Assembly: GCA_016786765.1 (NCBI GenBank)
Contig: JAEUUZ010000017.1
Span: 104,077 to 168,076, forward strand
Reading direction: 5' to 3'
Source of the DNA: Chitinophagales bacterium
Lineage (GTDB): Bacteria; Bacteroidota; Bacteroidia; Chitinophagales; LD1
DNA length: 64,000 bases
Below, piece by piece: positions 34,574-58,098 of the stretch; the first letter of the stretch is position 1, and the number at the start of each line of letters is the position of its first letter. Made by a program: the position numbers and the translations under genes. The notes under the pieces were generated by a model. The model saw only the letters and a list, made by a program, of their open reading frames with translations. It ran no database searches and had not been told where the DNA came from.

Positions 34574-35709
34574 TATTTTCCCTTGTTTAATTGTCGTAAA
34601 ATATAACCTTTTGCATCTGTTTTTTCTTTTATTAGGTCAACGCCAACTACTTTAAACAAAAGATATACCAACCAATTTACGCCTAATTTGATGCCGGCAA
34701 AAATGCTATGGAAAACACGGTAACATCCATTTTTTATTGCATTCAAGCTATGTTGTAATTCAAAACTTTCAAGGAGTGCATACAACCACTTTCCGGAAAA
34801 AAGAAGTAATTGGATGGGGAATAATAGTAGAAAACGTATGTCGCTGATGCACAAAATAATGATGAAAGAAAGTGGCAAGAGATGATCATATAAAAGATTA
34901 GGAAAATAGAATCGATAGCCATTGAGCTTGTCCATGCTTAGGAAAAGCAAAAGCGACAGCACTATTCCAACTACTGCAACAAAGAACCATTGATTTTGTA
35001 TGCACAGCATGGATACAAGTACCAATAAGAGGACTAATTCCGTTGATCGTAACCCGTTAAGAAAGGAATTTGTAATAGGAACTCCATATTTGTTCGTAAA
35101 GGTTTTCGTGTTACTTAATTGGTCGGCATCACTATCGTTTAGTTGGTGCAAAAGAATGTTCCGTAGGCCAACACAAAACTGCCACGCAAATAAAAGAGCT
35201 ACCCATACACCATCAGCGGGTTTGTCCGAAATTAATGTATAGGTATGTACTGCCATAACAGCGGGAATGCTGTGGGCATAAAGGGCATCAGTAATCAAGC
35301 CAAGTAATCCGCGTTCTTTTAAACGAATACCCGGCATAGAATAGGATAGAAATAATGAGAGCTGCAATACAATAAGCACGATAGTGAACGTATCGAAGGG
35401 TAAATAGTACCAAGGTGTAAACAACATCAACAAAGCGATGCCGAAATAGACCGATTTTTGAATTGTAGTTTTGTTGAGCAGGAAGTTTTTTTTGCCTGCA
35501 AGTCTGTCTTTGTCTTGGTCGAAAAAATCGTTGAGTAAATAGCCAAGTGATGCGAAGCCGATGATGGTAACGAGCGAACACATGGCCCACAATCCAAAGT
35601 GCTCAAAAGGAATTTGAAAATAAATCGTGAAAAGGTAAACCAAGCCAATCAACAAAGAAGCTTTGCCAATCCACCAATCTTCTGCTCTAAATGGCTTTGC
35701 TACCGACAT
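34573..35709 (-). CDS. UbiA-superfamily polyprenyl/prenyl transferase (integral membrane)
   Basis: 378 aa with about 8-9 TM helices. The first Asp-rich motif 'LNDFFDQDKD' fits NDxxDxxxD. The second acidic motif is 'LNDSDADQLSNTKTF'. Confidence 0.7.
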   Translation of the reverse strand: MSVAKPFRAEDWWIGKASLLIGLVYLFTIYFQIPFEHFGLWAMCSLVTIIGFASLGYLLNDFFDQDKDRLAGKKNFLLNKTTIQKSVYFGIALLMLFTPWYYLPFDTFTIVLIVLQLSLFLSYSMPGIRLKERGLLGLITDALYAHSIPAVMAVHTYTLISDKPADGVWVALLFAWQFCVGLRNILLHQLNDSDADQLSNTKTFTNKYGVPITNSFLNGLRSTELVLLLVLVSMLCIQNQWFFVAVVGIVLSLLLFLSMDKLNGYRFYFPNLLYDHLLPLSFIIILCISDIRFLLLFPIQLLLFSGKWLYALLESFELQHSLNAIKNGCYRVFHSIFAGIKLGVNWLVYLLFKVVGVDLIKEKTDAKGYILRQLNKGK

Positions 35710-35715
35710 TTCGCT

Positions 35716-36669
35716 TTAGCTGTTTGGGCGATTTAAAAAGTAGAGGTGCTTTTCTATATTCACATCAAAGGGAGGTTTCATCACTTTCACTTCGTAAAAA
35801 TCTATTGGGAAAACATAGTTCTCCCAGCTTACAATTTTGGCAATATCGAATAAGTTCTGAAAATCGTTAGAGATCGTCAAGTGTTCAAATTCTTCTGTTT
35901 TTACCTCAGGTGTTTTTACAGAAAGCAACAAGAAATTTAATCTTCGAATGGTTTGCATAATAACACTAAAATCAGCAACGTTGTAACAATAGGCTTTGTT
36001 GATTTCAGCAATAATTGCATCAATTTTTGCCCCATCCTCTGCATTGGGATGTTCTCGCTTAAATAAATCTTTGATGTATAAAATGCCACCAGGCTTCAAA
36101 CACGCATAAGCACTTTCTATAAGTTGAATTTGATGGGTAGAATGCCCAAACGATTCGAGGAATAAAATTCTGTCAAAGCGATTTGCGCCATAGAGACTGA
36201 GCATTTGATGGTAGTCGCCTTGTTGAATGGTAACATTGCCTTTAAGTGATTTGGAACTGATAACAGTTTTTGATTTTTCGACTTGAACCTCGGAAATAGT
36301 TAAGCCTTGTACGTCAATATTCAATTTTGAAGCAAAATAACTTGCGGGACCGCCCACACCACAACCGGCATCGAGTATCGTTTGTCCGTCTTTTAGCTCA
36401 GCACTTTCAATGGTATAGTCTAAATAGTCACTTACATTCTTTGTGCGAAACGCTTGAATCACCTCGCCATAAACACCCAAGAACTTATCGGTGGTTTCGT
36501 TGTAAAAATCGCCAACAATTTTTGAATGATTCGTGCTCAAATGGTTAGAAAGGCTTACTGCATTTAAAGTCGCATTCACCGCACTACTTTGTTTTTTCAA
36601 CAAGTAAATAATTACACCTAGTGAAAGCAAAAGGGATAACCCAAGAATAAGAATGAGAAGTTGAATCAT
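35716..36669 (-). CDS. membrane-anchored class I SAM-dependent methyltransferase (lipid-type MT motif)
   Basis: 317 aa. N-terminal TM 'IQLLILILGLSLLLSLGVIIYLL'. Motif I 'ILDAGCGVGGPASY' followed by 'VQGLTISEVQVEKS'. This resembles the ERG6/gamma-TMT/CFA-synthase group of lipid methyltransferases. Confidence 0.75.
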   Translation of the reverse strand: MIQLLILILGLSLLLSLGVIIYLLKKQSSAVNATLNAVSLSNHLSTNHSKIVGDFYNETTDKFLGVYGEVIQAFRTKNVSDYLDYTIESAELKDGQTILDAGCGVGGPASYFASKLNIDVQGLTISEVQVEKSKTVISSKSLKGNVTIQQGDYHQMLSLYGANRFDRILFLESFGHSTHQIQLIESAYACLKPGGILYIKDLFKREHPNAEDGAKIDAIIAEINKAYCYNVADFSVIMQTIRRLNFLLLSVKTPEVKTEEFEHLTISNDFQNLFDIAKIVSWENYVFPIDFYEVKVMKPPFDVNIEKHLYFLNRPNS

Positions 36670-36789: not shown

Positions 36790-39624
36790 GTGAAGGCAAA
36801 TAAAAAACATATTAATACAAGTGCAAAGTTGGGCTCAGGCAATTCAGCAGTAGCTACTCCTATATGGGAGCGGAAGTATTTTCTTGATTTCTTGATTTTT
36901 GCCTTTTCTTTTTTGTTGTATGCGAATAGTATTCCAAATGAATATAATTTGGATGATGAGTTGGTAACAATTAATCATCGCCTGACGTCCAAAGGAATAT
37001 CAGCAATTTCCGAAATTTTTGCATCACCCTATTATCAAGACGAATCGGGTTATTCTTACGAATACAGGCCTGTGGTATTGACCTCTTTCGCTATAGAACA
37101 TGATATTTTTGGTGATAATCCACATTGGAGTCATTTTTGGAATGTCATACTCTATTCACTTACATGTGTGATATTGTTTCGTGTTCTTCGAATATTATTT
37201 CAAAATTATTCTCCGCTAATTGCTATAGCAATCACTCTTCTTTTTGTTGCGCATCCGGCACATACAGAGGTTGTTTGTAGTATTAAAAATAGGGACGAAA
37301 TTTTTGGGTTGATGTTTAGTCTGTTGAGTTTATATTTTGCGGTAAAGAGTTTTCGTGACAAGAAGTGGCATTTGCTAATAGTAGTGCTCCTATTTTTTGT
37401 TTTGTCGTTAATGAGCAAAATAACATTTTTGTCTTTTGCAATACTCATTCCTCTAGCTATATTATTTTTTGTAGAATTTAGTTTTATCCCTTTCCTTTTT
37501 GTTGTTACCTCCTTATTAATCGTTGTTGTTACTTTTGCCGACACGAGCAATATTTTCATCAAAATAGGTATTGTTCTCTTTGGTGCAGGCTTAACTATAA
37601 TCTTTTTCTTTATTAAACACTTCCATCAGGTGAGTACCATGGTTGCTAAAATGTTTAGCTGGTTATTCGATAGAAAAAAATATTCTCTTGATAATGTAAA
37701 TGACTTGCCTAAAAGCACAACTAACGACCTCTTCAAAGATGGTTTTAATATAGCCACTCTTAAAAAATCTTTTTTGTTTATTTTTTTGAATGTCCTGTTT
37801 ATTGTATCTACGCTCCACAGTCTATATTATTTGCAATGCTTAGTAGTGGCTATTTGTGTGTTGTTGCTGTTTTGGAAAGATGAATTTGTGGTATTGCTCA
37901 GTACCTGCTCCATTTATGTCTTTATTCTGTTTAGATCATATCATTTCGGTTATTTCGATCACAAAGAATTTATAGATTTTCTTATCATTCCTATTACCTA
38001 TAATTTAATTTATGGCAATCGAGTTTTGATTGTCCCAAGCCTTATAGCAATTATTGTTACTATTATTACAAGCTTTTATAGCCCGATTTATGCTATGAGT
38101 TTTGAGGCATTAAAACCAATCTTGTTTATTGTATTTATGCTTCTTTTTAGATTTAAGTATGGCTGGATAGGTTTAGTAGCATATGCTTTAGGCGATATTT
38201 TTGTTTTTTTTACTTCAGGTTTAGGAGAACTCTCTACTGATAAGTTCAAGTTTATCTTTAATCAACTTGTTTTTTTCTCAACGGTTGCGTTAACTCTTTC
38301 AATTGTCTTTAAAAGATATCATTGGATTCTTGCAAAAGGTATATTAGTTATGGTTGTTTTTCTTTCTATTGTTCAGCATCCTCAACAAAAAGAAAGATAT
38401 GAAATGGTAGAAAAAACAGTAAAAATAATTGGTGACATTAACCCTAAAGTTATTTCTCAAGTAACGAATAGACCCATCGACTTTGCAGAGAATAGCATTG
38501 ATTTCGTAAAAACACCTCAAAGAGTTAAAGCCGGAACATCGTTAGTGATCTTGTTGCATTACTTAAAAACTGTTGCTATTCCCTACCCACTTTCTTTTTA
38601 TTATGGATACAGTTTCATCACTCCGTTGGATGTAATGGATGCAATTCCGTTACTCGCTTTAATTTTGTATTTGATAATTATTACTGTAGGAGGATTTTTG
38701 TTTTGGAAAAACAGGCTAATTTGTTTTGGAATATTGTTCTATCTGATTTCATTGGCAACATTCTCAAACTACTTCCAACCCGTTCCCGGGATGGTGGCCG
38801 ATCGTTTCTTACTAATACCTTCAATTGGATGGTTAATTGTTTTGGTAGCGATACTGTTTGTAGCTTTCAAAATAGATTTAAAAACACCAAAACTGATGCC
38901 GATTCCTGCCGGATTTTTTCGCTATATTTTTGGCTTTATTTTTATTGCTTATTCACTTCTTTCGTTTTCCCGAAACAGGCAATGGAAAGATTATCTTACA
39001 CTTGCCAGACACGATATCCAATATGTTTCTACGTCAACCCAAGCTCATAATCTTTTAGGGCTTCGTTTGATGAAATCCTCTTATGATAGTACTAATTTAG
39101 CAACTCAACTTGCCCTTCGACAGGAAGCTTTAGGCCACTTCAAAAGAGCAGTAGAAATTTATCCTGCATTCTTTAACGCAACTTTTGATATTGGTAGGGT
39201 TTATACCATTTTGAATTTGCCGGATAGCGCATTAGTATATTATGAAAGGGCCACAAAAATGAATACTACATTTGCTGATGCATTTACTGCTGCAGGTGAT
39301 ATTTACTTTCAAAAAGGACAACTAGACTCAGCAAGGATTCGTTATGAAAAGCTAATCGAAATCTTCCCAACTCAATATGTAGGCTACGATAAGGTTAGTT
39401 ATATGTATTTTCTGCAAAAGGAATACTACAAATCGATTATTGTAAACAAAGAAGCTATGGTCAAAATCCCTTCTAATCCTCAAGCACACATAAGCATTGC
39501 TAAAGCTTTTTACACACTAGGTATAATGGATAGTGTGTCATATTATTTAAAAAAAGCATTGGAAGTTGACCCAGGTAACCAAGAAGCGGCAGGGTTACTT
39601 CAAAATTTAAGCACTAGGCGATAA
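36790..39624 (+). CDS. GT-C-like polytopic membrane protein fused to C-terminal TPR repeats (TMTC/PMT-like architecture)
   Basis: GTG start, with no in-frame ATG before TM1. 944 aa. The acidic loop-1 motif 'NEYNLDDELV' follows TM1 as in PMT/TMTC enzymes. More than 15 TM helices. The C-terminal ~230 aa carries TPR-like repeats ('AVEIYPAFFNATFDIGRVY', 'ALVYYERATKMNTTFADAF', 'YLKKALEVDPGNQEA'). Confidence 0.6.
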   Translation: MKANKKHINTSAKLGSGNSAVATPIWERKYFLDFLIFAFSFLLYANSIPNEYNLDDELVTINHRLTSKGISAISEIFASPYYQDESGYSYEYRPVVLTSFAIEHDIFGDNPHWSHFWNVILYSLTCVILFRVLRILFQNYSPLIAIAITLLFVAHPAHTEVVCSIKNRDEIFGLMFSLLSLYFAVKSFRDKKWHLLIVVLLFFVLSLMSKITFLSFAILIPLAILFFVEFSFIPFLFVVTSLLIVVVTFADTSNIFIKIGIVLFGAGLTIIFFFIKHFHQVSTMVAKMFSWLFDRKKYSLDNVNDLPKSTTNDLFKDGFNIATLKKSFLFIFLNVLFIVSTLHSLYYLQCLVVAICVLLLFWKDEFVVLLSTCSIYVFILFRSYHFGYFDHKEFIDFLIIPITYNLIYGNRVLIVPSLIAIIVTIITSFYSPIYAMSFEALKPILFIVFMLLFRFKYGWIGLVAYALGDIFVFFTSGLGELSTDKFKFIFNQLVFFSTVALTLSIVFKRYHWILAKGILVMVVFLSIVQHPQQKERYEMVEKTVKIIGDINPKVISQVTNRPIDFAENSIDFVKTPQRVKAGTSLVILLHYLKTVAIPYPLSFYYGYSFITPLDVMDAIPLLALILYLIIITVGGFLFWKNRLICFGILFYLISLATFSNYFQPVPGMVADRFLLIPSIGWLIVLVAILFVAFKIDLKTPKLMPIPAGFFRYIFGFIFIAYSLLSFSRNRQWKDYLTLARHDIQYVSTSTQAHNLLGLRLMKSSYDSTNLATQLALRQEALGHFKRAVEIYPAFFNATFDIGRVYTILNLPDSALVYYERATKMNTTFADAFTAAGDIYFQKGQLDSARIRYEKLIEIFPTQYVGYDKVSYMYFLQKEYYKSIIVNKEAMVKIPSNPQAHISIAKAFYTLGIMDSVSYYLKKALEVDPGNQEAAGLLQNLSTRR

Positions 39625-41247
39625 TTTTTCTATTCTAAAATTCCCAAGATAGAGCATGTCTAATCCGCTGGAATAGAAAGATGCTATTGCCTCTCTTGGG
39701 GTATTCACAATGGGTTCGTGGTTGAGATTAAAGCTAGTGTTTAGTAGAACACCATAGCCGGTTAGTTTTTTAAATGCTGAAAGTAATCCAAAGTAAAGGG
39801 GGTTGTCTGATTCGCAAACAGTTTGAATTCTACATGTTTCATCGGCATGAACAACGGCCGGAATTTTTTGTATTATGTTTTGCGCAACTTGATATACAAG
39901 TGTCATATAAGGGGCTTTCTTTGCTTTTCCTTGAAAAAATAGATTGATGTCTTGTTCTAAAACTGAAGCACCGAAGGGTCGAAACGATTCTCTAAATTTT
40001 ATCTTTTGATTGACGATTTTTTGCATTTCTGGTAAACACGGATTGGCTAAAATACTCCTGTTTCCTAAAGCTCTAGGGCCAAACTCCATTTTTCCCTGAA
40101 ACCAAGCAATTACCTTGCCTTCAGCTAAGTCTTTAGCCGCAGATTCAACAATATCCACTGGTTTTGTAAAGTTCACTTGGCAGATTTGAAGTGTTTCTTG
40201 AATCGATTCTGCTGAAAACTCGTTCCCTAAAAAGGTATTGTTAGGTGTAACAGGATTAAGCTTTGACTCTAATCCAGCTAACCAAGCCGCACCCATCGAT
40301 ATACCGGCATCGGAAGCAGCAGGTTGAATAAAAATATTGTCTACAACACTCGCATTCATTATCTTTTGATTCATCAAACAGTTTAAGCTGACACCCCCAC
40401 TCAAACAAACATTACGAATTCCTGTGTGTTGAATGTAGTGTTGGGTGAGATGCAATACCGTTGCTTCCAAATGAAATTGAGCTGAAGCGGCTACATCTTT
40501 GTAAAACTGGGTAATGGTTGTTCCCGGTATACGTTTTTCTTTTCCTATTTTATCAATAAACAATTGGTTGAAATTCATTTCATCTCGATGCAATGAAGGC
40601 GCCAGAGGAGCTGGTACTTCTATATATGCGGTATTCAGTTGAAATTCTCCATTGGCGTAAGGCAATAACCACGAAAAATCAAACTTAGTTTTGTCGCCAA
40701 ATGCAGCTAATCCCATGAGTTTGTATTCTTCACTATCTTTAGTGAATCCGCAATATTGAGTGATTAATGAATAAAAAAGTCCAAGACTTTGCGGGCGGTC
40801 ATAACGTTTAATGACTTCAATTTTATTTTTTTTGCCAATAGCGATTTGAACTGAAACACCATCACCAGAATTATCCAAAGTAATGAGGAGGGCCTCATCA
40901 AATCCTGAACTAAAAAAGCTTCCCGCAGCATGACAATCGTGGTGATGATATCTTTTTATTGGGGGTGAGTAGCCGAAAAAATTTTTGAAATAGGTTTCGA
41001 TTTTCTTGTCAAAGTCTTGCCCCCAGGTTGATCCGTGAAAAGCAACTGTTCCAATATCCTGTATAGTAATATTGCCTATTTTCAATACTTCAACAATAGC
41101 CGAATATGGAAGTTTACCAGCGGAAAACTTAACTCTACTTATTCGCTCTTCTTCAATGGCTGCAATTACTTTGCCATTGTGAATCAAACACGCGCTTACA
41201 TCTTGATAGCCTTGTCTAAATCCTCCATTTATGCCTAAAATATACAT
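39607..41247 (-). CDS. carbamoyltransferase (NodU/CmcH/TobZ family)
   Basis: 546 aa. The N-terminus 'MYILGINGGFRQGYQDVSACLIHNGKVIAAIEEERISRVK' and 'YHHHDCHAAGSF' are hallmark regions of this family. Confidence 0.85.
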   Translation of the reverse strand: MYILGINGGFRQGYQDVSACLIHNGKVIAAIEEERISRVKFSAGKLPYSAIVEVLKIGNITIQDIGTVAFHGSTWGQDFDKKIETYFKNFFGYSPPIKRYHHHDCHAAGSFFSSGFDEALLITLDNSGDGVSVQIAIGKKNKIEVIKRYDRPQSLGLFYSLITQYCGFTKDSEEYKLMGLAAFGDKTKFDFSWLLPYANGEFQLNTAYIEVPAPLAPSLHRDEMNFNQLFIDKIGKEKRIPGTTITQFYKDVAASAQFHLEATVLHLTQHYIQHTGIRNVCLSGGVSLNCLMNQKIMNASVVDNIFIQPAASDAGISMGAAWLAGLESKLNPVTPNNTFLGNEFSAESIQETLQICQVNFTKPVDIVESAAKDLAEGKVIAWFQGKMEFGPRALGNRSILANPCLPEMQKIVNQKIKFRESFRPFGASVLEQDINLFFQGKAKKAPYMTLVYQVAQNIIQKIPAVVHADETCRIQTVCESDNPLYFGLLSAFKKLTGYGVLLNTSFNLNHEPIVNTPREAIASFYSSGLDMLYLGNFRIEKLSPSA

Positions 41248-41249
41248 CG

Positions 41250-42047
41250 TTACAATCCTGAAAACTGAGTTCCTTTTTTGGTTGGTGATGGAATGGTTAT
41301 ATCTACAACTTTTAAGTCTCCTGCAAATTCATTGAATTCTCCTTGCGCTAATATGCCTGTTTCGTTAACAGCTAAAGAGCAACCTACCATTTTTTTTCCT
41401 TCATAGGGCCCGCCTACAATATAGCCCACACTCGTTGTGCTTAGTACTGGTATTTGATATTTTTTTGCAATGATAGAAAGGGGTTCAATCCATTTCGTTT
41501 TATAAGGGTCCATTTCTTCTGTAACAAAGTGATCAACTGTCCACGAAGATGGCGAAAGAATAAGTTGAGCTCCCATTCTAGCCAACATATGACCATTGTA
41601 AATAGAATCAATATAATTATCTGCACATATATTTAATCCTATTTTACCAAACGGAGTGTTTGCTACTTCTAGCTTCTGGCCTACCTCATAATAGGGAAAT
41701 TCAACTTCCAGTAGGTTTATTTTAGCATATTTCAAAACGATTTTACCTGTCGAGTCAATAAGTAATGCCGTATTATAATTCTTGCTGCCTAATTTCTCCG
41801 TTAATCCCAGGCAAAGCCAAACATTATGATGAGCTGCTAGATGGCAAAAAAAATCGGAATATAGTCCAGGAATTGGTGCTGCCTCATTTAGTGCAGAGGG
41901 ATGTGTCCAAGCAAAGTCAAGTGTTTCAGGTAATAACATTAGGTCGCACCCTTCCCGCTTTCCTTGGAGGATTAACTTTTCGGCTCGTTCAAGATTGCGT
42001 TCCGGTTCTCCGCCTTCTACTAAAAGTTGCGCCATTCCTATACGCAT
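41250..42047 (-). CDS. carbon-nitrogen hydrolase (nitrilase superfamily)
   Basis: The track start at 42053 is TTG; the ATG at 42047 lies 2 nt after the upstream stop. Glu in 'LMLLPETLDF', Lys in 'VLKYAKINLLE' and Cys in 'GLNICADNY' form the E-K-C triad pattern. Confidence 0.8.
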   Translation of the reverse strand: MRIGMAQLLVEGGEPERNLERAEKLILQGKREGCDLMLLPETLDFAWTHPSALNEAAPIPGLYSDFFCHLAAHHNVWLCLGLTEKLGSKNYNTALLIDSTGKIVLKYAKINLLEVEFPYYEVGQKLEVANTPFGKIGLNICADNYIDSIYNGHMLARMGAQLILSPSSWTVDHFVTEEMDPYKTKWIEPLSIIAKKYQIPVLSTTSVGYIVGGPYEGKKMVGCSLAVNETGILAQGEFNEFAGDLKVVDITIPSPTKKGTQFSGL

Positions 42048-42049
42048 TT

Positions 42050-43240
42050 TCAACGAAATTTTAAGGTGAAATACTTATCGTAGACCACTTGTGTAAAGAT
42101 ACCCAGCTTTGTCAAAATCCAAACTGGAAATTGAGCGAATTTCATCCAACGATAACTGTTTGGGTAATCCCACCAATTTTTAGGAGGTAACTGAAGGTAA
42201 TTGTCGAATTCTTCTTGTGTTATGCCAAGTCGTTTGATACAGAGAGAAATAATTTTCGGGTCCTCAATTTGATAAGGTTGCAACGATTTTTGAAGTGCGA
42301 TATCACGATGAAACTGCCCGCTTCTAATCAATGCAGAGTATTCAATGAGTCGGAAATTAATATTAAATTTTGTGCGATGTATATAAGTAATAAGAGCCCA
42401 ATACAAATCGTCAAAATAATGTGCTCCCGGATAAACCCAATCTAATTCGCGAGATAAAATTTCACCCGATTCTTCACGAGAGTAGGGATAATTGTATAGT
42501 GGAGAGTGTACTCGTATTCCATTAAGTACAGTGTAAAAAAACATCTCCTTTATTCCTAAATTATAACCAGCTTCATTTGGTTTCCATTTTCTTAATTGAA
42601 TAGAGCCGAATTGTTTTTGAATTGCACGTAAATGATCTCCATCAAAGTAGGCCCAGGCAAGCGGGCGGATACCTTCGGTACGAAAACTTTGTCCGAAAAG
42701 GATGTGTTTTACTTTTTCTTTATAGGCTACAGAATAGAGCGCAGCACCAATACCCACATCGGTTCCATTATTTAAGAGCGGAGTAGAGGCTTTTAGATCA
42801 GTAATTTTCAAATCTTTACATTCTCTAAAATCTGAAGTAATAGTGCGTAATTCTACATTTAATTTTCTGACGGCTTTAAGCATGTTTTCTCCAGCAACTG
42901 GATTGTCGAACCCATCATTGAAATGCACGGCAAGCGGTCTTAAATTCCATTTTGTAACGGCTAGATATAGAAGATAAATACTGTCCCTTCCACCACTAAT
43001 TCCAATAACACAGTCGTATTTTTTATTTGAACCATCTTTTTTTATTGCGGCAAATTTCTTTTTCAATATTTTTTCTCCGCGCTCATCATTAGGGAAAGTA
43101 GCAACAAATTTATCGTGCAATTTGCATAGCGTACATTCGCCATTGTTATCAAAAGCTATACCTGGAATAGTATTGTCACAGATGCATCTAGTACATTGCT
43201 GATAGTTGATGTTTTTTTGAAATCCGCTAACGCTTAACAT
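42050..43240 (-). CDS. PP-loop N-acetyl-sugar amidotransferase (WbuX/LfnA-like)
   Basis: 396 aa. N-terminal Cys4 ribbon 'CTRCICDN...NGECTLC' followed by 'VIGISGGRDSIYLLY' (SGGxDS PP-loop). Confidence 0.75.
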   Translation of the reverse strand: MLSVSGFQKNINYQQCTRCICDNTIPGIAFDNNGECTLCKLHDKFVATFPNDERGEKILKKKFAAIKKDGSNKKYDCVIGISGGRDSIYLLYLAVTKWNLRPLAVHFNDGFDNPVAGENMLKAVRKLNVELRTITSDFRECKDLKITDLKASTPLLNNGTDVGIGAALYSVAYKEKVKHILFGQSFRTEGIRPLAWAYFDGDHLRAIQKQFGSIQLRKWKPNEAGYNLGIKEMFFYTVLNGIRVHSPLYNYPYSREESGEILSRELDWVYPGAHYFDDLYWALITYIHRTKFNINFRLIEYSALIRSGQFHRDIALQKSLQPYQIEDPKIISLCIKRLGITQEEFDNYLQLPPKNWWDYPNSYRWMKFAQFPVWILTKLGIFTQVVYDKYFTLKFR

Positions 43241-43310: not shown

Positions 43311-44393
43311 ATGTCAGTACCTTTTGTTGATTTAAATCCTATCCACATACCAATTATGGATGAAGTCAATTATGCCATCAAAAGGGTAATAGATAGTAAA
43401 GATTTTATACGAAGTAATGTAGTTGAAAAATTTGAAGAAAATTTCGCGAATTATATTGGAGTAAAATACGCTATTGGTTGTGCAAATGGCACTGATGCAC
43501 TCGAGTTGGCACTTGAAGTGCTTGGTTTAAGTCAGAATGATGAGGTTATTGTTCCGGTACATTCATGGGTATCTACTGCGAGTGCTGTTCATCGTTTGGG
43601 CGCAAAAGTGGTATTTGCAGATACTCTTATTGAAGAGTATACGATTAATCCGGCTAGTATTAGTCAGAAAATAACATCAAAAACAAAAGCAATTATAGTT
43701 GTTCACCTATACGGACATCCCTGCCAAATGGACGAGATTATGGCTATTGCTCAAAAGCACAATATTATAATCATTGAAGATTGTGCACAAGCCCATGGTG
43801 CAATGTACAAAGGGAAAAAAGTAGGCTCATTTGGACTTTTGAGTTGTTTCAGTTTTTATCCGAGCAAAAATCTTGGTGCATTTGGTGATGCAGGAGCAGT
43901 ATTAACAAACGAAAAGGTGTTTGCCGAACGAGTTAAATTTATCGCTAATTGTGGCCAAATTTCAAAAAATGAAATTGCATATATTGGTCGAAACAGTAGA
44001 CTTGATGCTATTCAGGCGGCAATTTTGGATGTTAAACTCAAATATCTAGACGAATGGAATGTTTCTCGTAGGAGGTTAGCACACATGTATACAAAAAAGT
44101 TGGCAAAATCCACATTAATAACTCCAGTAGAAAAAACGGGGTTTTATCATGTATATCATCTCTATGTTGTAAAATCTTCAAGGCGAGCGGAAGTTGTACG
44201 AGAATTTGAAGCAAATCATATAAGTTGTATGATTCATTACCCCTATATTCTTAGTGACCTCAAGCCATTTAGTAGCACAGAGGATTTTCCAAATGCTCGA
44301 ACTTACCAGAATCAAATTATATCCTTGCCAATGTATGCATATATGGAGGAGCATAAAATAGAGTTTGTTCAAAAATTTCTCTCCACGCTATAA
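43311..44393 (+). CDS. DegT/DnrJ/EryC1/StrS-family PLP-dependent sugar aminotransferase
   Basis: 360 aa with 'VPFVDLNP', 'CANGTDALELAL', 'IIEDCAQAHGA' and 'FSFYPSKNLGAFGDAGA' (PLP Lys). Confidence 0.9.
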   Translation: MSVPFVDLNPIHIPIMDEVNYAIKRVIDSKDFIRSNVVEKFEENFANYIGVKYAIGCANGTDALELALEVLGLSQNDEVIVPVHSWVSTASAVHRLGAKVVFADTLIEEYTINPASISQKITSKTKAIIVVHLYGHPCQMDEIMAIAQKHNIIIIEDCAQAHGAMYKGKKVGSFGLLSCFSFYPSKNLGAFGDAGAVLTNEKVFAERVKFIANCGQISKNEIAYIGRNSRLDAIQAAILDVKLKYLDEWNVSRRRLAHMYTKKLAKSTLITPVEKTGFYHVYHLYVVKSSRRAEVVREFEANHISCMIHYPYILSDLKPFSSTEDFPNARTYQNQIISLPMYAYMEEHKIEFVQKFLSTL

Positions 44394-44407: not shown

Positions 44408-45274
44408 ATGAACGAGATATTCAAGAATAAAGATTGGCAGAAACAATTTTCTAGATATGGGTATGTTATCATACCAAGCATTCTTAATCCTAGTGAAATT
44501 AAACAGATAAGAGATACCTATTCTAAGTTTTCAAACGAGATTACTCAATCTTTTCATACTTCTCATTTTAGCATAAACGTTAATTATAAAAAGACTATTC
44601 AAGAAAAAATTATCGAAATTGTTTACCCAAATTTACTGCCGCTTCTCAATAACTATGTTCCCGTTTTTGCTAATATGATGGTGAAAAGTGCAGACACAAA
44701 TAATTTTCTTCAAATGCATGCCGATTGGACTTATGTTGATGAAACTAAATTTCGATCCATTTCAGCATGGATCCCATTAGTTGATACTAACAAACAAAAT
44801 GGATGTTTTGGTGTAATTGACGAGTCTCATGTTTTTACGAATTTGATTCGAGGTCCACGAATACAACAAAACAATTTTAAGAGAGACAGAGTTTGGGTGA
44901 AAAAATATGGCAAACTAATATGTTTAAAAGCAGGTGACGCAATTATTTTTGATCATGCACTGTTGCATTTTTCTCTAGCTAATTTTTCTGGCGTGGTTCG
45001 ACCAGCCATAAATATGTCTATGGTGCCAAAAGATGTTGAGGTAGTTCATTACTGTGTACCTACAGGAGCTAATGAAATTGAGAAATACATTGTGGACGAC
45101 CTTAATTTTTATTTGGAATATGACAATTGGGAACGGCCTCGAATAGGAAAACCTGTTGAATATTTACCTATTGAAACAATCAAATACATTGATTATCATC
45201 TTGAAAACTATGGGAAAACTCACCTGAGTCTTGGTGGGCGTTTTATTAGTTTTCTAAAAGGGCATTTTGTGTAA
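44408..45274 (+). CDS. PhyH-family Fe(II)/2OG dioxygenase
   Basis: 288 aa. 'MHADWTYVDE' (HxD), 'NGCFGVIDESH', 'LLHFSLAN' (distal His), 'VRPAINM' (Arg). Confidence 0.75.
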   Translation: MNEIFKNKDWQKQFSRYGYVIIPSILNPSEIKQIRDTYSKFSNEITQSFHTSHFSINVNYKKTIQEKIIEIVYPNLLPLLNNYVPVFANMMVKSADTNNFLQMHADWTYVDETKFRSISAWIPLVDTNKQNGCFGVIDESHVFTNLIRGPRIQQNNFKRDRVWVKKYGKLICLKAGDAIIFDHALLHFSLANFSGVVRPAINMSMVPKDVEVVHYCVPTGANEIEKYIVDDLNFYLEYDNWERPRIGKPVEYLPIETIKYIDYHLENYGKTHLSLGGRFISFLKGHFV

Positions 45275-45315
45275 TGCGGGAATTTGGCATGTTAAGATCT
45301 TCAAGCTAACGGATT

Positions 45316-46599
45316 TCAACCTAATGATGGGACTTTATAAATGTTCCATTCTAGTTTTGGTCTTACAGAGCCTTTATTTATATCGCCAATAAGATCTATG
45401 TAATCAGATTGTGGATGGATAATAAAGCTAAGTTCCTCTGAAAAACGAATAAGTTCTTTTGATTCGTTATTCCACTCATTTTCTTCCACACCCAATCGTA
45501 AATGCATATAATACTTTCCCGGAATGAGGAAGTGTTCTGGAATACGACAATCCACTTTTATCTCCCCTATATACTCTTTAAACTGTTCACTTAAGTCCCT
45601 GCCTTCGGTATTGTTGAGCAAATGTCCTACTAGTACTGGCTGATAGAATATATTTTCAACAAAAAATGTTATGCCAATTTTTGCACCTTGAATTTTTTTT
45701 TCAAGTTTTAAAATGATCTCTATGGGATCTGTATTAATAAGTTTTTCGCTCGTTCGTTTTAAGTTAAGAATAGAGATTGCCTTTATCGCAATGAATTTAT
45801 TTTGGGGACAGTTAGCTTTATTCCACTGTAAATCAACTGTCCCAAGTTTATTGAGATCTGTGCTTTTAATCTCTACCATTTCCTTTTTACCGTCAAAATT
45901 ATCTTTCTGCCGTATGAAATATTCGCCTAATAGTGCTGCTGGTTGCCCTGTTTTTTTTAGTTCACCTTTTTCAATCCATAAACATTTGTTGCTCAATTCT
46001 AGAATTTCAGTTCTGTTGTGGGAAACAAAAATGATAGTTCTACCTGAAGCTGACAAAGTTTTCAGCAATTCCTGACATTTTAATCGGAATCCTTCATCAC
46101 CTACCGAAAGGACTTCATCCAAAATCATTATATCTGCATAGGAATGGAAAGCAAGAGAGAACGCAAGCCTTAAAAACATGCCATTTGAATAATGTTTTAC
46201 TGGGCGATAATAGAATTCCCCTATTTCACTGAAGTCTAGAATATTTTGCGAAGCAGTTTCTATTTCTGCTTTGCTCTTTTTGAAGTATTTGAGCTGGAGG
46301 CGAACATTTTCAGCGCCTGTTAAATCGGGATGAAAATTACTGCCAATATCTAAAATGGAAGTGGTAGAGCCATAAAGATAAATTTCACCTGAGCTAGGTT
46401 TGGTAATTCCACTTAATATTTTTAGCAATGTTGTTTTTCCTGAGCCATTATTGCCAATAATACTCACTACATCCCCCCGCTCTACAGTAAATGATATATC
46501 CTTAAGTGCATAGAATGTGTTTTTCTTCCTGTTTTCAACATCTGGAATTATATATTGTTTAGTAATGTTGTTTACGCTAAGTGCAATAGTGTTTTTCAT
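45316..46599 (-). CDS. ABC transporter ATP-binding protein, Wzt/TagH/KpsT-like with C-terminal extension
   Basis: 427 aa. Walker A 'GNNGSGKTT', signature-like 'YSNGMFLRLAFS', Walker B 'IMILDEVLSVGD', H-loop 'FVSHN'. The C-terminal ~190 aa are beta-rich, like a Wzt C-terminal glycan-binding domain. Confidence 0.85.
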   Translation of the reverse strand: MKNTIALSVNNITKQYIIPDVENRKKNTFYALKDISFTVERGDVVSIIGNNGSGKTTLLKILSGITKPSSGEIYLYGSTTSILDIGSNFHPDLTGAENVRLQLKYFKKSKAEIETASQNILDFSEIGEFYYRPVKHYSNGMFLRLAFSLAFHSYADIMILDEVLSVGDEGFRLKCQELLKTLSASGRTIIFVSHNRTEILELSNKCLWIEKGELKKTGQPAALLGEYFIRQKDNFDGKKEMVEIKSTDLNKLGTVDLQWNKANCPQNKFIAIKAISILNLKRTSEKLINTDPIEIILKLEKKIQGAKIGITFFVENIFYQPVLVGHLLNNTEGRDLSEQFKEYIGEIKVDCRIPEHFLIPGKYYMHLRLGVEENEWNNESKELIRFSEELSFIIHPQSDYIDLIGDINKGSVRPKLEWNIYKVPSLG

Positions 46600-46605
46600 A
46601 TTGTC

Positions 46606-48300
46606 TTATAATTCATTTATACCAGCATCAATATAGTCCTCTATAGAAAGCGAAACAATGCCATTTTTCATACTTCCTATAAATTTCCCACCACGATATA
46701 ATCCCTCTCCATTCCAATGTTCATCCATGTAATAGTTTTCATTTTCCAAATAAACAGAAAGTGAATTAATCTCTTTATCCTCACAGATAAAACTATAAAG
46801 ATCGGATGAGGTGTGAATCATACGAAAGGTAAAGCATATTCTATCGTTAAGCGTTAGATTGGCTGTAGAGTTGTGTAATAAATTATTGTCAAATACAATA
46901 GCTTGGCCAGCTTTGAGGCGAACAGGGACTTCAAATTGACGGAGCCATTCCCTGTGTTTTTCATGACAACCAGAGAAAGATCCTCCATAAATTGTTTGCT
47001 GCATACTATGGCTTTTGGGTATTACTGTTAGGCAACCATTTTGTTCATTCACATCAACAAGCGGTACCCAAATGGCATAATGGGGCTCTAGTTGATGGTT
47101 AAGCAATAGAGTGCTGTCAGCATGTAAATCTATATCGCCCGAGGTTAGCGCTTTTTTGGTGTAATATTGCGAAACAGGAATGTTGTAATTCGAAAAATAA
47201 CGATTGAGCGCTGGCTGCACGTTAGCGCTGATAAATTGGTGAATGGTTAATTTTGTTGAGGAATCGGTATGTTGTAAGGTGGTGAATTTGCCAGGCAATT
47301 TATCGATGCCACCGAAATGTTGAGCATAGTGGTCTTGGAATAGTTTTAATTCTGAAGTGCTGAGTAAATCAACAATAGTATATCCTTCCCGGTTAAGTTC
47401 GTTTTCAAAAAAGCGATTGGTCGCAATGTGCAATTGTTTGACATGTACTGCTCTACAACCCCAAAAGGCCATCTGGTAATGCTTTCGAAGTGTTTTGCCA
47501 GTAATGGTATTATTGTCTGTTGGCGACAAATGTGTTATCCCTGTTTTTTCTATTGTTAAAGGCACAATGCCTTTTTCCAATAGTGGAAGATGGCTCAACA
47601 AAACCTCTCCGGTAATTGGGTATAAGTCTGTAGTTTTTTGCTCTGCGTTTTTCTGAAAAAAATAAGTAGGTGCATTTTTCTCTACAAAATTAACGATTAC
47701 TGCAATACGGATTTCATCGGTATTGTTGGGGTGCGAAGCATGAAATAGGCCATTGTGATAGATTAGAATGTTCCCTGCAGGAACATTTATATCGGTGCAG
47801 ATAGCTTTAATCTCATTGCAATATGGAACAACTGGAATACTATAGCTGCCCGAGCGAAAATTGTTGAAAAATTTGTGACTACCAGGCACAACAAACATAC
47901 CCCCGTTCACAGTTGTTGTTAATTGAAGTGGAATCCAAATTTGATAGCTTTTATGTTTTGTTTCGTCTACAATATTCCAATCTTGATGTAACGAAAATTC
48001 CTTATCAACGCGAGCGCCTTTTACCATAAAATGGCCAATGAAATAGTTGTAGTCAGGCAGTAGTGTTTGTAATTTATCACCCACAATTGTCTGGATGGCA
48101 TTACTAATTGCAATTCCTTTTTCTGCAGGATTGGAATTGTGCGAGGCGTACATCTCATTTATAGGTTGTTGCTCGAAATGCTCGGAATAGAGATCTCGCA
48201 ATTGTTGAATTGGGGTATCGTCAAATACCCTAAGCGTGCAAAATCCTAATCGATCAAGCGAATCTAAGAAAGGCTGATATTTTTTGTTTGATGTGTGCAT
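46606..48300 (-). CDS. fused double PhyH-family Fe(II)/2OG dioxygenase
   Basis: 564 aa. Domain 1: 'LHQDWNIVDE' ... 'LFHASHPN' ... 'IRIAV'. Domain 2: 'LHADSTLL' ... 'LLHNSTAN' ... 'DRICF'. The ATG start overlaps the upstream gene by 47 nt. Confidence 0.75.
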   Translation of the reverse strand: MHTSNKKYQPFLDSLDRLGFCTLRVFDDTPIQQLRDLYSEHFEQQPINEMYASHNSNPAEKGIAISNAIQTIVGDKLQTLLPDYNYFIGHFMVKGARVDKEFSLHQDWNIVDETKHKSYQIWIPLQLTTTVNGGMFVVPGSHKFFNNFRSGSYSIPVVPYCNEIKAICTDINVPAGNILIYHNGLFHASHPNNTDEIRIAVIVNFVEKNAPTYFFQKNAEQKTTDLYPITGEVLLSHLPLLEKGIVPLTIEKTGITHLSPTDNNTITGKTLRKHYQMAFWGCRAVHVKQLHIATNRFFENELNREGYTIVDLLSTSELKLFQDHYAQHFGGIDKLPGKFTTLQHTDSSTKLTIHQFISANVQPALNRYFSNYNIPVSQYYTKKALTSGDIDLHADSTLLLNHQLEPHYAIWVPLVDVNEQNGCLTVIPKSHSMQQTIYGGSFSGCHEKHREWLRQFEVPVRLKAGQAIVFDNNLLHNSTANLTLNDRICFTFRMIHTSSDLYSFICEDKEINSLSVYLENENYYMDEHWNGEGLYRGGKFIGSMKNGIVSLSIEDYIDAGINEL

Positions 48301-49165
48301 ATGTTGTAATCGTTGAAACTCTATTGTTTAAAGGTTGAGAAAGCTGCTGGAAGCAGTTGTGCTCAATTGGCGAAAAATCATACTTGAATGTTCTTATGAG
48401 CTGTGCATGTTGAGGTCGATGTCCAACCTTTAGCTCAATGAAATCAGACAGTGTCATATTATATTCTTCTACCTCGTTTTCAGGATTGCCCTCTGGTAAA
48501 AAATAATGCTTAATCTCTGCCGTTTTTGGAATTATAGCCATAATGGCTGCAACCCGAACAGTAGAAGAAAGATTTGGGTAAGAGCTATGAATACAGGCAT
48601 GATTTATTACAACACAATCTCCGATTTTTGTTTCAACATCAGTAAAAAGGTTGTTGAGGTAAGTTATTACTTCTCTGTATTTCCATGGATATGAAGGCAG
48701 TGTACGTATAGTATCTGCCCATAAATGACTACCTCTGATAAATCGTAAGCTGCCATTTTCTTTGGTCGTATTCGTTGTGGCCATCCAAATATTAAGTGAG
48801 TAAAATTGTTCTTCATCTACAAATCTTAAATCTTGATGCGGCCCCAATTCCGATTCGAGATGTGGTTGTTTCACTAAATAATTGGCTGCAATAACTTGGT
48901 AATCTGTAAAATGTTTATCCACCTCTTCCATGAAAACAGACTTTATAAACTGGTCACTTTCTCCGATCAAATCGGCATTGTTCGTCTCGTTAGTAGCATG
49001 AAATTTTTTCGATTCGGCTATTGTTTCATGTGCGACTTGCGTACGCAAATAAAATGCATGAATGCGCTGTACTTGCTCCGCGGAAAACATGCTAAAGGAA
49101 ACGAATCCGTCTTCATCGAATTTTCGTTGCAATTCTTCATCTTTAAAAATAGCAGGCTTCGGCAT
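48254..49165 (-). CDS. PhyH-family Fe(II)/2OG dioxygenase
   Basis: 303 aa with 'GPHQDLRFVDEE', 'NGSLRFIRGSH', 'CIHSSYPN' and 'VRVAA'. Confidence 0.75.
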   Translation of the reverse strand: MPKPAIFKDEELQRKFDEDGFVSFSMFSAEQVQRIHAFYLRTQVAHETIAESKKFHATNETNNADLIGESDQFIKSVFMEEVDKHFTDYQVIAANYLVKQPHLESELGPHQDLRFVDEEQFYSLNIWMATTNTTKENGSLRFIRGSHLWADTIRTLPSYPWKYREVITYLNNLFTDVETKIGDCVVINHACIHSSYPNLSSTVRVAAIMAIIPKTAEIKHYFLPEGNPENEVEEYNMTLSDFIELKVGHRPQHAQLIRTFKYDFSPIEHNCFQQLSQPLNNRVSTITTYAHIKQKISAFLRFA

Positions 49166-49170
49166 TGTTT

Positions 49171-50034
49171 TTAACTAAATAATTGTTTTAAACGGCTTAA
49201 AAATGAGTGTTTGTGTTGCGTCATAAATAGTTCAAAAAGCTGTGGTGTAACTGTTGTAGATGAGAAAAATTGGTCTTCTACATAGGTGCCTTTGCGCGGT
49301 GGCTTTTCTTTTTCAAAGTAAAGATATGCCTCCTTTGTCATGCTGAATTTCTTCAACTGATGAACACTGTTTTTGGGTAAAAAATAGTGTATCAAAGGTG
49401 CCTCTTTTGTGTATGCGGCCACCACAGCTGCTAGTCTATATTTTGATGATAAGTTCGCAAACGACCCATGTATAATCGCATGATTGAAAATAAACGCATC
49501 GCCTGCTTTAGCTGAAAAGGCAATTGCCTTTTTTTTAATCAACGATTTTACGTTTTCATATGGCCAAACATAATCGTGTGTTGGTCGTATATTTGGCATA
49601 AAGTTATGGCTGCCAGGAAGAAAATACATGCCACCATTTTGCTTGTTTATATCTTCAAGCGCAATCCAAATGTTTACCGATAGATGTTGTTCTTCATCTA
49701 CAAAGGTGATATCTTGGTGTGGATCTGTTGCTGAATTTGGCAAAGGCATCTTCACTAAAAAATTGCCAAACAATAGCTCATAATTGGTCAGATGCTTATC
49801 AATTGCTGGTGCAATAATTTTTTGCAAGGCCTCATCTACAGCAGTTATAAGGGTAGGGTCGCTAGAATGGCTTGTTGTAATATAGGGTAAATTTATTTTT
49901 TCGTGTGCTGCACGAAACGGAGTATAGGCGTTCACTAACTCATGCACCTCAGCAGGATTCAACAGGTGTATTTTCACGAAGCCGTCTTGCTCAAATTTAC
50001 GTTGTAATATGGTAGATTTAAACAGTGTTTTCAA
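49171..50034 (-). CDS. PhyH-family Fe(II)/2OG dioxygenase
   Basis: 287 aa. TTG start, with no in-frame ATG near the N-terminus; the length matches its paralogues. 'DPHQDITFVDEE', 'NGGMYFLPGSH', 'IIHGSFAN', 'YRLAA'. Confidence 0.7.
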   Translation of the reverse strand: MKTLFKSTILQRKFEQDGFVKIHLLNPAEVHELVNAYTPFRAAHEKINLPYITTSHSSDPTLITAVDEALQKIIAPAIDKHLTNYELLFGNFLVKMPLPNSATDPHQDITFVDEEQHLSVNIWIALEDINKQNGGMYFLPGSHNFMPNIRPTHDYVWPYENVKSLIKKKAIAFSAKAGDAFIFNHAIIHGSFANLSSKYRLAAVVAAYTKEAPLIHYFLPKNSVHQLKKFSMTKEAYLYFEKEKPPRKGTYVEDQFFSSTTVTPQLFELFMTQHKHSFLSRLKQLFS

Positions 50035-50926
50035 ATTTTTGAAATGATTTTATAAACGAAGAGAACCACGATAGAGATTTTGCTGGTGGAAGGGGGAAAG
50101 CAGCTTTCTGATAAAATTCTTCTTCTGAAATATTGGGAAAAACATAGTCGAACTCACTAATGCGAAACATTTCATTTGGCTTGCCGGTTTTTTGCATATC
50201 CATAAAGACGTCTAAATTGAGCGCATAACATTCGATCGCCTTTTCTTTTTTCGACATATCTTTAAAATAAATTTGCCATTGCGCATTTGATGAACAAACC
50301 AATAAGGTTGCTGCAAGCCTGTGTCTATTTGACTGATTATCGGTAGCCCCGTGAATAGTTGCATTCGAAAAAACAACTGCCTCCCCTGCTTTCATGGGTA
50401 GTTCGGTAGCTATTTCACGCAATTTATTGGAGTAGGTTCTATAATAAACTGGACATTCTGGTACAGTTCGGAGGGCAGAAGAAACTTTATGGGATCCTTT
50501 CACAAAATAAAGATTTCCATTGGTGCTATCTATGTCATGCAAAGCTACCCATACGTTTGCACTGCTAAACTGCTGTTCGTCAACAAAGGATGGGTCTTGA
50601 TGTATTCCTGTGGCCGATCCATTTCCGCTTTCTTTAATATGGAAACAGCCCACTAATGCGTCAAAATTTTTCATATGGCGCTCCAATGCTTTGCCAATAG
50701 TAGTCTTGATCTGTTGGTCGACCTCTAGAATTACTGTATTGTTCTTTGTATCGGTCGTGGTATGATGTAGTTGTCCACTAGCAACGTGCGCCTCCCTGTT
50801 TTTTTCATAGCAGGCAACAAGCGTTCTCACTTCCTCATGGTTGAGTAGCGGAAGTTTCACAAAGCCGTTTTTGTCGAATTCGGCTTGAGTAATAGAATTG
50901 TTAAACATTTTTTTTAGTGATTGCAT
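50018..50926 (-). CDS. PhyH-family Fe(II)/2OG dioxygenase
   Basis: 302 aa with 'GIHQDPSFVDEQ', 'NGNLYFVKGSH', 'TIHGATDN' and 'HRLAA'. Confidence 0.75.
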   Translation of the reverse strand: MQSLKKMFNNSITQAEFDKNGFVKLPLLNHEEVRTLVACYEKNREAHVASGQLHHTTTDTKNNTVILEVDQQIKTTIGKALERHMKNFDALVGCFHIKESGNGSATGIHQDPSFVDEQQFSSANVWVALHDIDSTNGNLYFVKGSHKVSSALRTVPECPVYYRTYSNKLREIATELPMKAGEAVVFSNATIHGATDNQSNRHRLAATLLVCSSNAQWQIYFKDMSKKEKAIECYALNLDVFMDMQKTGKPNEMFRISEFDYVFPNISEEEFYQKAAFPLPPAKSLSWFSSFIKSFQKFENTV

Positions 50927-51047
50927 ACAACTTTAACAATAAACTCACACAAGTTACAATATTAATTGTTCAGAAAAAAAATAAGTAACTTTCAATTTAA
51001 ATACTGATATAAATCAGCTATAATTAGATGTTAAATGTCACTAGAAC

Positions 51048-58014: not shown

Positions 58015-58098
58015 TATAAAAAATAATAAACTTATATTAGTACGCTTATGCAAGATAAAAATTATTGAACCGATTACAACAAATGCTAATTTGTAAAT

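Follow-up and report, generated by a model that had tools for sequence, protein, structure and literature searches.

A nitrilase-fold amidase and a carbamoyltransferase encoded beside a divergent NASAT/WbuX-like PP-loop protein as a candidate three-gene module for surface-sugar amidination

Introduction

How might an amidotransferase of the WbuX type obtain ammonia when genes for its usual partners are not found nearby? The question is raised by a 64,000-nucleotide stretch of DNA from a Chitinophagales bacterium (assembly GCA_016786765.1, contig JAEUUZ010000017.1, positions 104,077 to 168,076), the whole of which we call the window. On its minus strand, a gene for a PP-loop ATP pyrophosphatase resembling WbuX and the N-acetyl-sugar amidotransferases (NASAT; 396 aa, 42050–43240) is followed by genes for a nitrilase-superfamily (CN hydrolase) amidase (265 aa, 41250–42047) and a NodU/TobZ-type carbamoyltransferase with Kae1-like and YrdC-like domains (546 aa, 39607–41247). 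An earlier reading of this DNA made from the letters alone (hereafter the sequence-only reading) had noted that enzymes of the WbuX type usually rely on HisH/HisF-like partners, and the literature agrees (PMC11445079, PMC11340318). In Sphingomonas, WbuX adjoins genes of the HisF2 and HisH families (PMC11340318), and an interaction between WbpG and HisF2, validated by pull-down, supports ammonia delivery by HisH2/HisF2 (PMC11445079).

The best-supported explanation for the window, and one in which we place moderate confidence, is that the nitrilase-fold protein donates ammonia in place of WbuY/WbuZ. We favor it because the genes are linked, HisH/HisF-like genes were not detected, the catalytic site of the CN hydrolase is intact and the two-subunit NAD synthetase of Thermus provides a precedent.

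Results

Three genes separated by 2-nt spacers

The PP-loop gene ends in TGA (42052–42050) and is separated by the spacer "aa" from the ATG of the CN hydrolase at 42047. The CN hydrolase gene in turn ends in TAA (41252–41250), and the spacer "cg" precedes the ATG of the carbamoyltransferase at 41247. These junction letters agree with the 2-nt spacings reported in the sequence-only reading. A TTG at 42053 could serve as an alternative start for the CN hydrolase; because homologues begin with MRIGMAQ or MKIGMAQ, we consider the ATG correct.

The PP-loop protein

The WbuX profile TIGR03573 covers the PP-loop protein from profile position 2 to 343 of 344 and scores 181.9 bits, with a curated cut-off of 203.2, and a Pfam scan of the protein gave zero matches. 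Two motifs are given for the NASAT family in the paper on the LpNASAT structure, SGGxDS and the tetracysteine zinc motif CxxCxn[GN]xCxxC (PMC10607449), and the PP-loop protein has both. SGGRDS occupies residues 82–87, and the cysteines are arranged as a CxxC (C16/C19) and a GxCxxC (G34-E35-C36-x2-C39, hence C36/C39). SGGRDS and all four cysteines are invariant in 36 relatives.

An AlphaFold2 model of the protein (predicted local distance difference test score, pLDDT, 91.2) was compared with the PDB using Foldseek. The best match is the NASAT crystal structure 8WEX_B, aligned over 392 columns with template modeling (TM) scores of 0.63/0.64 (E 2.9e-14). Other PP-loop enzymes match the model on the nucleotide-binding core only (TM ≤0.36), and the next family, TtuA, reaches a TM of 0.26. 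The full-profile match, the invariant motifs and the fold all bear out the WbuX-like assignment that the sequence-only reading had based on the Cys4 ribbon and SGGRDS. Because the profile score falls under the cut-off despite the match to the whole profile, we place the protein in a divergent sister subfamily of NASAT/WbuX and not among its core members.

Search for HisH/HisF-like partners

The sequence-only reading had suggested looking for HisH/HisF-like genes, and we found none in the window or in 129 related loci. Searching these 1.73 Mb by tblastn with E. coli HisH, HisF and HisA gave nothing significant, in a search that had no positive control on a canonical wbuX locus. Neither PF00117 nor PF00977 was found in Pfam scans of essentially all window open reading frames (ORFs) of at least 150 aa, and the only glutaminase domains among ORFs of that size are those of two AsnB-type proteins.

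The CN hydrolase and its nearest relatives

The CN hydrolase matches PF00795 with 115 bits (gathering score 23.2). Its E41, K109 and C141 are invariant, which upholds the intact Glu-Lys-Cys pattern described in the sequence-only reading, and a second glutamate, E116, is present in 30 of 36 sequences. D44, W47, N111, Y120, D143, N144, W169 and W186 are further invariant residues of this family, a small and discrete one for which 1.84 billion proteins yielded 64 representatives at E ≤1e-30. The AlphaFold2 model (pLDDT 93.4) has the alpha-beta-beta-alpha fold and a TM of 0.83 to 3IVZ/6YPA. Several long matches to the CN hydrolase (P0249, P0305, P0374, P0387 and others) were considered as fusions with a PP-loop domain and rejected; they carry unrelated domains or tandem CN domains.

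By its profile scores, the protein lies outside every characterized equivalog. Its best NCBIfam scores (archaeal nitrilase, 62; aguB, 47.6, cut-off 410; NAD+ synthase, 38.4, cut-off 479) are far under the cut-offs. In a search with the family profile, the nearest solved proteins were the PH0642-type amidase (112 bits) and Nit2 (91 bits), with N-carbamoyl amidases (57–60 bits) and the glutamine-dependent NAD synthetase 5KHA (52.7 bits) about equally far away. The fold search did not discriminate, with TM scores of 0.75–0.83 throughout. Foldseek and HMMER both ranked the PH0642/Nit2 amidases first, and carbamoyl-amidases, formamidase and NadE followed within a narrow band. We dropped the assignment of a substrate from fold or sequence, as these four groups score too close together.

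The structure 6YPA is the PH0642 amidase with bound glutaramide. Nit2 hydrolyzes alpha-ketoglutaramate, which like glutaramide is a glutamine-like C5 amide. That the nearest solved relatives act on glutamine-like amides or their analogues is a point in support of an ammonia-donating role. Overall, the CN hydrolase neither groups specifically with the N-carbamoyl amidases nor derives from the glutaminase domain of NadE. Should it donate ammonia, its recruitment to that role would have been independent.

Conserved linkage in related loci

We used the PP-loop protein as a query against species-representative genomes and obtained 80 loci at 55–91% identity. They come mostly from metagenome-assembled genomes (MAGs) of Bacteroidota (Chitinophagales, Flavobacteriales and Bacteroidales), with a few bins labeled as other phyla. 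Acidiluteibacter ferrifornacis S-15 (L073) is the sole genome of an isolate among the hits. With the CN hydrolase as a query against metagenomes, 49 loci were fetched, 23 of them with adequate flanks. All loci and the window were then pooled; 69 have at least 4 kb on each side.

Fifty-six PP-selected loci have at least 3 kb on both sides. In 43 of them the CN hydrolase gene directly adjoins the PP-loop gene on one strand, 4 have it no more than 10 kb away and 9 lack it; for the carbamoyltransferase gene, the corresponding counts are 46 adjacent, 4 nearby and 6 lacking it. In the pooled set, a CN hydrolase gene lies no more than 8 kb from the PP-loop gene in 61 of the 69 loci, and a carbamoyltransferase is present in 55. 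Where a locus holds both the PP-loop and CN hydrolase genes, they are adjacent on one strand in 84 of 91 cases, 35 in the order seen in the window and 49 in the reverse. The gaps between them have medians of 3 and 5 nt in the two orders and typically run from -1 to +5 nt, and many of the gene pairs overlap (-1, -4 or -8 nt), as is consistent with two genes that are probably translationally coupled. The co-occurrence analysis proposed in the sequence-only reading therefore gave a clear answer. Because the arrangement is found again in about 90 independent loci, we regard it as beyond chance. The module is also present in MAGs labeled as several phyla, with adjacency kept in two gene orders, which further supports a functional tie between the PP-loop protein and the CN hydrolase.

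Loci selected by the CN hydrolase reveal which gene holds the module together. Nineteen of the 23 have the PP-loop gene alongside, 11 together with the carbamoyltransferase and 8 without it, and the remaining 4 have neither gene. A carbamoyltransferase without a PP-loop gene occurs in 0 of the 23. Six PP-selected loci, for their part, combine the PP-loop gene and the carbamoyltransferase without a CN hydrolase. Given these patterns, the PP-loop gene is the hub of the module, and the CN hydrolase and the carbamoyltransferase attach to it independently. The carbamoyltransferase is a near-constant third member, and because it recurs nearly as regularly as the CN hydrolase, the module comprises three genes, not two. 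The sequence-only reading had mentioned the carbamoyltransferase but overlooked it as an integral component.

In loci L101 and L103 (7001–8905), a gap of 19 nt separates a CN hydrolase orthologue (67% identical) from a downstream gene of 352 aa, and no PP-loop gene occurs within 7 kb. The N-terminus of the 352-aa gene product appears ThiL/PurM-like, judged by eye.

We compared pairwise distances across 40 complete triads in a mirror-tree analysis, which is in modest agreement with the PP-loop gene as hub and whose correlations share phylogeny and serve as supporting evidence only. PP-loop and CN hydrolase distances show the best correlation (r = 0.74, partial 0.60), and those of the PP-loop protein and the carbamoyltransferase less so (r = 0.54, partial 0.09). 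Mean divergence is 0.369 for the PP-loop protein, 0.370 for the CN hydrolase and 0.508 for the carbamoyltransferase.

Evidence against an ammonia donor and two alternative roles

Several observations weigh against the CN hydrolase as ammonia donor to a WbuX-like enzyme. In 8 of the 69 loci, the PP-loop gene has no CN hydrolase nearby, and a substitute glutaminase sought in the loci lacking one was not found; their small upstream ORFs encode TerC, RNase H and similar proteins. Conversely, 4 of the 23 CN-selected loci have no PP-loop gene. A natural PP–CN fusion was not found among the best 150 CN hydrolase representatives in an exhaustive search of representatives, and a search with the two sequences concatenated gave only single-domain proteins of about 396 aa, which any fusion would have outranked. 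NadE is missing from the top 50 fold matches of the CN hydrolase and was not found by phmmer at E ≤1e-3, and the NadE glutaminase domains are not nearer to the CN hydrolase than the other superfamily branches are. The distances of the CN hydrolase and the carbamoyltransferase show a sizeable correlation of their own (r = 0.67, partial 0.48). Finally, the substrate of the PP-loop protein may differ from that of WbuX, since the score falls under the trusted cut-off for WbuX.

The proposal in the sequence-only reading that a nitrilase-fold protein replaces WbuY/WbuZ is supported in part. Gene linkage and the absence of HisH/HisF-like genes speak for it, and the loci without a CN hydrolase and the missing fusions speak against it. 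Its comparison with a non-fused NadE is apt as an analogy, but the CN hydrolase is not specifically NadE-like, and a split NadE is itself already known (PMC3376133).

The CN hydrolase might instead act at the substrate level, removing an N-carbamoyl, N-formyl or N-acetyl group from a sugar or lipid-linked intermediate, with the PP-loop enzyme using free ammonia. N-carbamoylputrescine amidase and D-carbamoylase, which act in this way on small molecules, are among its top matches (TM about 0.8, 57–60 bits). However, the protein scores far under every carbamoyl-amidase equivalog (47.6 against 410 for aguB), and the PH0642/Nit2 amidases are closer (112 and 91 bits). The usual position of the carbamoyltransferase next door, together with the partial correlation of 0.48 between the two proteins, would suit such an amidase. 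Against this, 8 of the 23 CN-selected loci pair the CN hydrolase with the PP-loop gene in the absence of a carbamoyltransferase, and none of the 23 pairs it with a carbamoyltransferase alone. We found neither equivalog-level similarity to the N-carbamoyl amidases (AguB, beta-ureidopropionase and D-carbamoylase) nor a dependence on the carbamoyltransferase. Carbamoylation followed by decarbamoylation within one operon would also be futile unless the carbamoyl were a transient protecting group. Arn-type pathways, which some of the related loci resemble, do use a transient N-acyl group that is removed later, and the PP-loop genes that occur without a nearby CN hydrolase would fit an enzyme fed by free ammonia. 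On balance, we think a substrate-level amidase unlikely, though it is the strongest rival to our proposal. The sequence-only reading had held that its proposal would fail if the CN hydrolase grouped with N-carbamoyl amidases or did not co-occur with the PP-loop gene; co-occurrence is strong, and the CN hydrolase, which does not group specifically with those amidases, follows the PP-loop gene.

It is also conceivable that the CN hydrolase is merely co-operonic, with an unrelated job in the glycan pathway or in metabolite repair (as an omega-amidase-like enzyme) and no direct link to the PP-loop protein. The failure to find fusions would be expected of such a protein, as would the 4 of 23 CN-selected loci without a PP-loop gene and the unrelated-looking neighbors in L101 and L103, and its fold and sequence give no specific function. 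Yet same-strand adjacency in 84 of 91 loci, in two orders, under several phylum labels and with gaps of -1 to +5 nt, speaks against this. The CN hydrolase also diverges at the same rate as the PP-loop protein and belongs to a small, discrete family (64 representatives at E ≤1e-30), so we consider this explanation very improbable.

The carbamoyltransferase and acyl-installing neighbors

The carbamoyltransferase carries both PF16861 (227 bits) and PF02543 (149 bits) at full length and scores 138.6 bits against the NCBIfam NodU equivalog, whose cut-off is 1000. In L098, L126 and L127, which lack it, the CN hydrolase and PP-loop genes lie beside genes for a MocA-type oxidoreductase, a DegT aminotransferase, an N-acyl-installing enzyme, an ArnC-like glycosyltransferase of family 2 (GT2) and a GT-C enzyme; of that neighborhood, just the GT2 genes are left in L112. 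As the acyl-installing enzyme, L126 has a hexapeptide acetyltransferase and L098 a weak match to GNAT, and L127 has an acetyltransferase, a formyltransferase and a deacetylase. This content mirrors the WbpB/WbpE/WbpD steps that make the acetamido group amidated by WbpG, joined to an Arn-like lipid-carrier route.

In L127 (507–9963) and L126 (1287–10525), an Arn-like gene run comprises an ArnC-like GT2, DegT, a MocA oxidoreductase, a polysaccharide deacetylase, a formyltransferase and a hexapeptide acetyltransferase, and continues with the CN hydrolase and PP-loop genes and then a GT87/GT-C membrane enzyme. The Arn-like content of these two loci suggests that the amidinated sugar may be delivered via a polyprenyl-phosphate carrier.

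No homologue of the hexapeptide, GNAT or formyl transferases was detected in any of the 55 carbamoyltransferase loci among the 69, and one occurs in 4 of the 14 loci without a carbamoyltransferase (3 of them independent), in WbpB/WbpE/WbpD-like contexts. The queries came from carbamoyltransferase-less loci, so that this split is subject to ascertainment bias, and few loci are involved. Because of this distribution, 0 of 55 against 4 of 14, the acyl-installing neighbor would be either an acetyl or formyl transferase or the carbamoyltransferase. On this thin evidence, that neighbor might supply the acyl group which the PP-loop enzyme goes on to amidate, with acetyl yielding acetamidino and carbamoyl yielding guanidino.

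A divergently transcribed gene beside the module (43311–44393, plus strand) encodes a DegT/PseC-type aminotransferase dependent on pyridoxal phosphate (PF01041, 347.5 bits). Genes of this type are frequent but not constant neighbors, found within 8 kb in 29 of the 69 pooled loci, and their predicted role would be to put an amino group on the sugar.

These neighbors bear on a different chemistry, a guanidino-sugar route. By N-carbamoylation, the carbamoyltransferase would turn a sugar amine into a ureido group, whose oxygen the PP-loop enzyme would adenylate, as argininosuccinate synthetase does with citrulline, and ammonia from the CN hydrolase would complete a guanidino group. The PP-loop gene adjoins the carbamoyltransferase in 46 of 56 loci, acyltransferase homologues separate by presence of the carbamoyltransferase as described, and a divergent DegT neighbor is at hand in the window. 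However, characterized NodU/TobZ-type enzymes are mostly O-carbamoyltransferases, DegT lies within 8 kb in only 22 of the 55 carbamoyltransferase loci, and the acyltransferase comparison is subject to the query bias and small numbers already given. PP-loop and carbamoyltransferase distances barely co-vary once the CN hydrolase is controlled for (partial 0.09), and a PP-loop route from ureido to guanidino was not found in the literature searched. We rate this route as doubtful, and rather improbable overall. If it operated, it would apply the logic of arginine biosynthesis to a cell-surface glycan by a route previously undescribed, and the acetamidino-forming loci, in which an acetyltransferase replaces the carbamoyltransferase, would represent a sister pathway.

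The wider window

The whole window is a surface-glycan and tailoring locus. A plus-strand gene at 36790–39624 encodes a GT-C-type (PMT_2) membrane glycosyltransferase with C-terminal TPR repeats (PF13231 and TPR families). It converges on the carbamoyltransferase gene, with an 18-nt overlap of the 3' ends (39607–39624), and has homologues in related loci L001, L002, L028, L031 and L051. On the other side of the module, the minus-strand gene at 45316–46599 encodes a TagH/Wzt-like polysaccharide-export ABC ATPase (PF00005) with a C-terminal extension; its NCBIfam scores for TagH (174 bits) and Wzt/RfbE (139 bits) are both under the cut-offs. The window also encodes an ArnC-like GT2, a GT9, an epimerase, and UbiA-type, methyltransferase and AsnB-type proteins, along with at least seven PhyH-type dioxygenases, a WelO5-like protein, three AspH-like hydroxylases and more than ten radical SAM enzymes.

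Oxygenases of the Fe(II)/2-oxoglutarate type are unusually dense at 44408–52849, 57220–58053 and 59691–61477. They include the PhyH-family proteins (one a 564-aa double domain), the WelO5-like halogenase-family protein (51048–51920), the three Asp/Asn beta-hydroxylase-like proteins and one cupin-8/JmjC protein. PhyH genes adjoin the triad in 27 of the 80 related loci. A second conserved sub-module (32798–36669, minus strand) consists of genes for a PhyH protein, a CMAS-like methyltransferase, a UbiA-type prenyltransferase and an AsnB-type amidotransferase. It follows the triad in 15–16 of the 80 loci (L007, L031, L036, L039, L063, L075 and others) and is kept in loci without a CN hydrolase (L012, L018, L036 and L063). 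Just beyond it, the ORFs at 30583–31890 and 31769–32797 overlap by about 120 nt; an upstream TTG start was probably called too early.

In several radical SAM proteins, a SPASM domain precedes the radical SAM core (for example, at 29–96 with the core at 141–293), the reverse of the usual order. They are encoded at 8321–9607, 25273–26781, 26781–28229 and 28219–29769, in a tandem array, and have homologues in related loci (L051, 11239–20915). Three B12-binding radical SAM enzymes are encoded at 23376–25232, 58099–59619 and 61603–63147. At 19020–21539 (plus strand), among genes for glycosyltransferases and hydroxylases, lies one for an 839-aa tail-fiber-like protein with collagen triple-helix repeats and a C-terminal S74 "chaperone of endosialidase" domain. 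This protein could be a glycosylated or hydroxylated surface fiber and a substrate of the locus. Two c-type cytochrome genes (52716–55426), for a SoxA/TsdA-like dihaem and an MtrC-like multihaem protein, interrupt what is otherwise a glycan-tailoring locus.

Discussion

We propose that the three genes constitute a conserved module within a surface-glycan pathway, with their translation probably coupled. The PP-loop protein, a predicted divergent N-acetyl-sugar amidotransferase, would adenylate the carbonyl oxygen of a sugar N-acyl group, converting ATP to AMP and PPi, and ammonia would displace the adenylated oxygen to leave a cationic amidine. The ammonia would come from the adjacent nitrilase-fold amidase and not from a HisH/HisF-like pair. 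Through a thioester at Cys141, the amidase would hydrolyze glutamine, or a glutamine-like C5 amide, at the side-chain amide and hand NH3 to the synthetase, much as the G-subunit of two-subunit NAD synthetase does. The carbamoyltransferase may place a carbamoyl group on the same sugar. This scheme builds on direct observations of how the genes are arranged, of their motifs and folds, of the conserved linkage and of the lack of HisH/HisF-like genes; from them we infer the amidine chemistry, the amide donor, a physical complex and ammonia channeling.

A NASAT paired with a nitrilase or CN hydrolase is not described in the literature we searched, and neither is a constant pairing of a NodU/TobZ-type carbamoyltransferase with a NASAT-like protein. 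What appears new here is a known PP-loop family, NASAT, with a type of nitrilase-fold partner described so far for NAD synthetase only. ATP-dependent amidotransferases are classed by their glutaminase partner, and if our proposal is correct, the nitrilase-fold solution evolved more than once. HisH/HisF and nitrilase systems would then form a natural pair for studying ammonia delivery to the poorly characterized NASAT enzymes, and about 90 paired PP-loop and CN hydrolase sequences are on hand for co-evolution analysis or multimer modeling. The three genes also provide a widespread marker, mostly in Bacteroidota, for a predicted cationic and carbamoylated modification of surface sugars.

The WbuX, WbpG, PseA and LfnA enzymes (NASAT, 8WEX) share with the PP-loop protein a full-length fold, SGGxDS, the zinc motif and a surface-glycan gene context, and related loci here have WbpB/WbpE/WbpD-like neighbors. 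The window protein differs in being only about 16% identical to 8WEX and in falling under the TIGR03573 cut-off. In WbuX systems with HisH2/HisF2 (WbuY/WbuZ), the synthetase is accompanied by that pair, whereas here its constant companions are a nitrilase-fold amidase and a carbamoyltransferase. The latter has both Pfam domains of the NodU/TobZ/CmcH O-carbamoyltransferases but scores far under the NodU equivalog cut-off. The closest solved relatives of the CN hydrolase, the PH0642-type amidases (1J31, 6YPA and 3IVZ) and Nit2 (2W1V), have catalytic residues and a similar length in common with it (TM 0.81–0.83). They stand alone, however, none being known to feed a synthetase, and they are just 21–26% identical to the CN hydrolase, whose family has invariant residues of its own.

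The nearest functional parallel is NAD synthetase. The nitrilase-like subunit of the Thermus thermophilus two-subunit enzyme, TTC1538/TTC1539, is a proven glutaminase in a 1:1 complex; it confers glutamine use, and single-domain forms use free ammonia (PMC3376133). This nitrilase-like "class IV" glutaminase has been listed as a component of NAD synthetase only (PMC3376133). Of the features that mark the class, the CN hydrolase shows an operon with a PP-loop synthetase (84 of 91 loci) and lacks close homology to the glutaminase (G) domain of NAD synthetase. The present synthetase is of the NASAT family and not NadE, the CN hydrolase is not orthologous to that domain, and no counterpart of the fused NadE form was found. 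As in Thermus, however, a PP-loop ATP pyrophosphatase shares an operon with a nitrilase-fold protein bearing the Glu-Lys-Cys triad, and just as some NAD synthetases work on free ammonia without a glutaminase, a minority of the loci described here have the PP-loop gene without a CN hydrolase.

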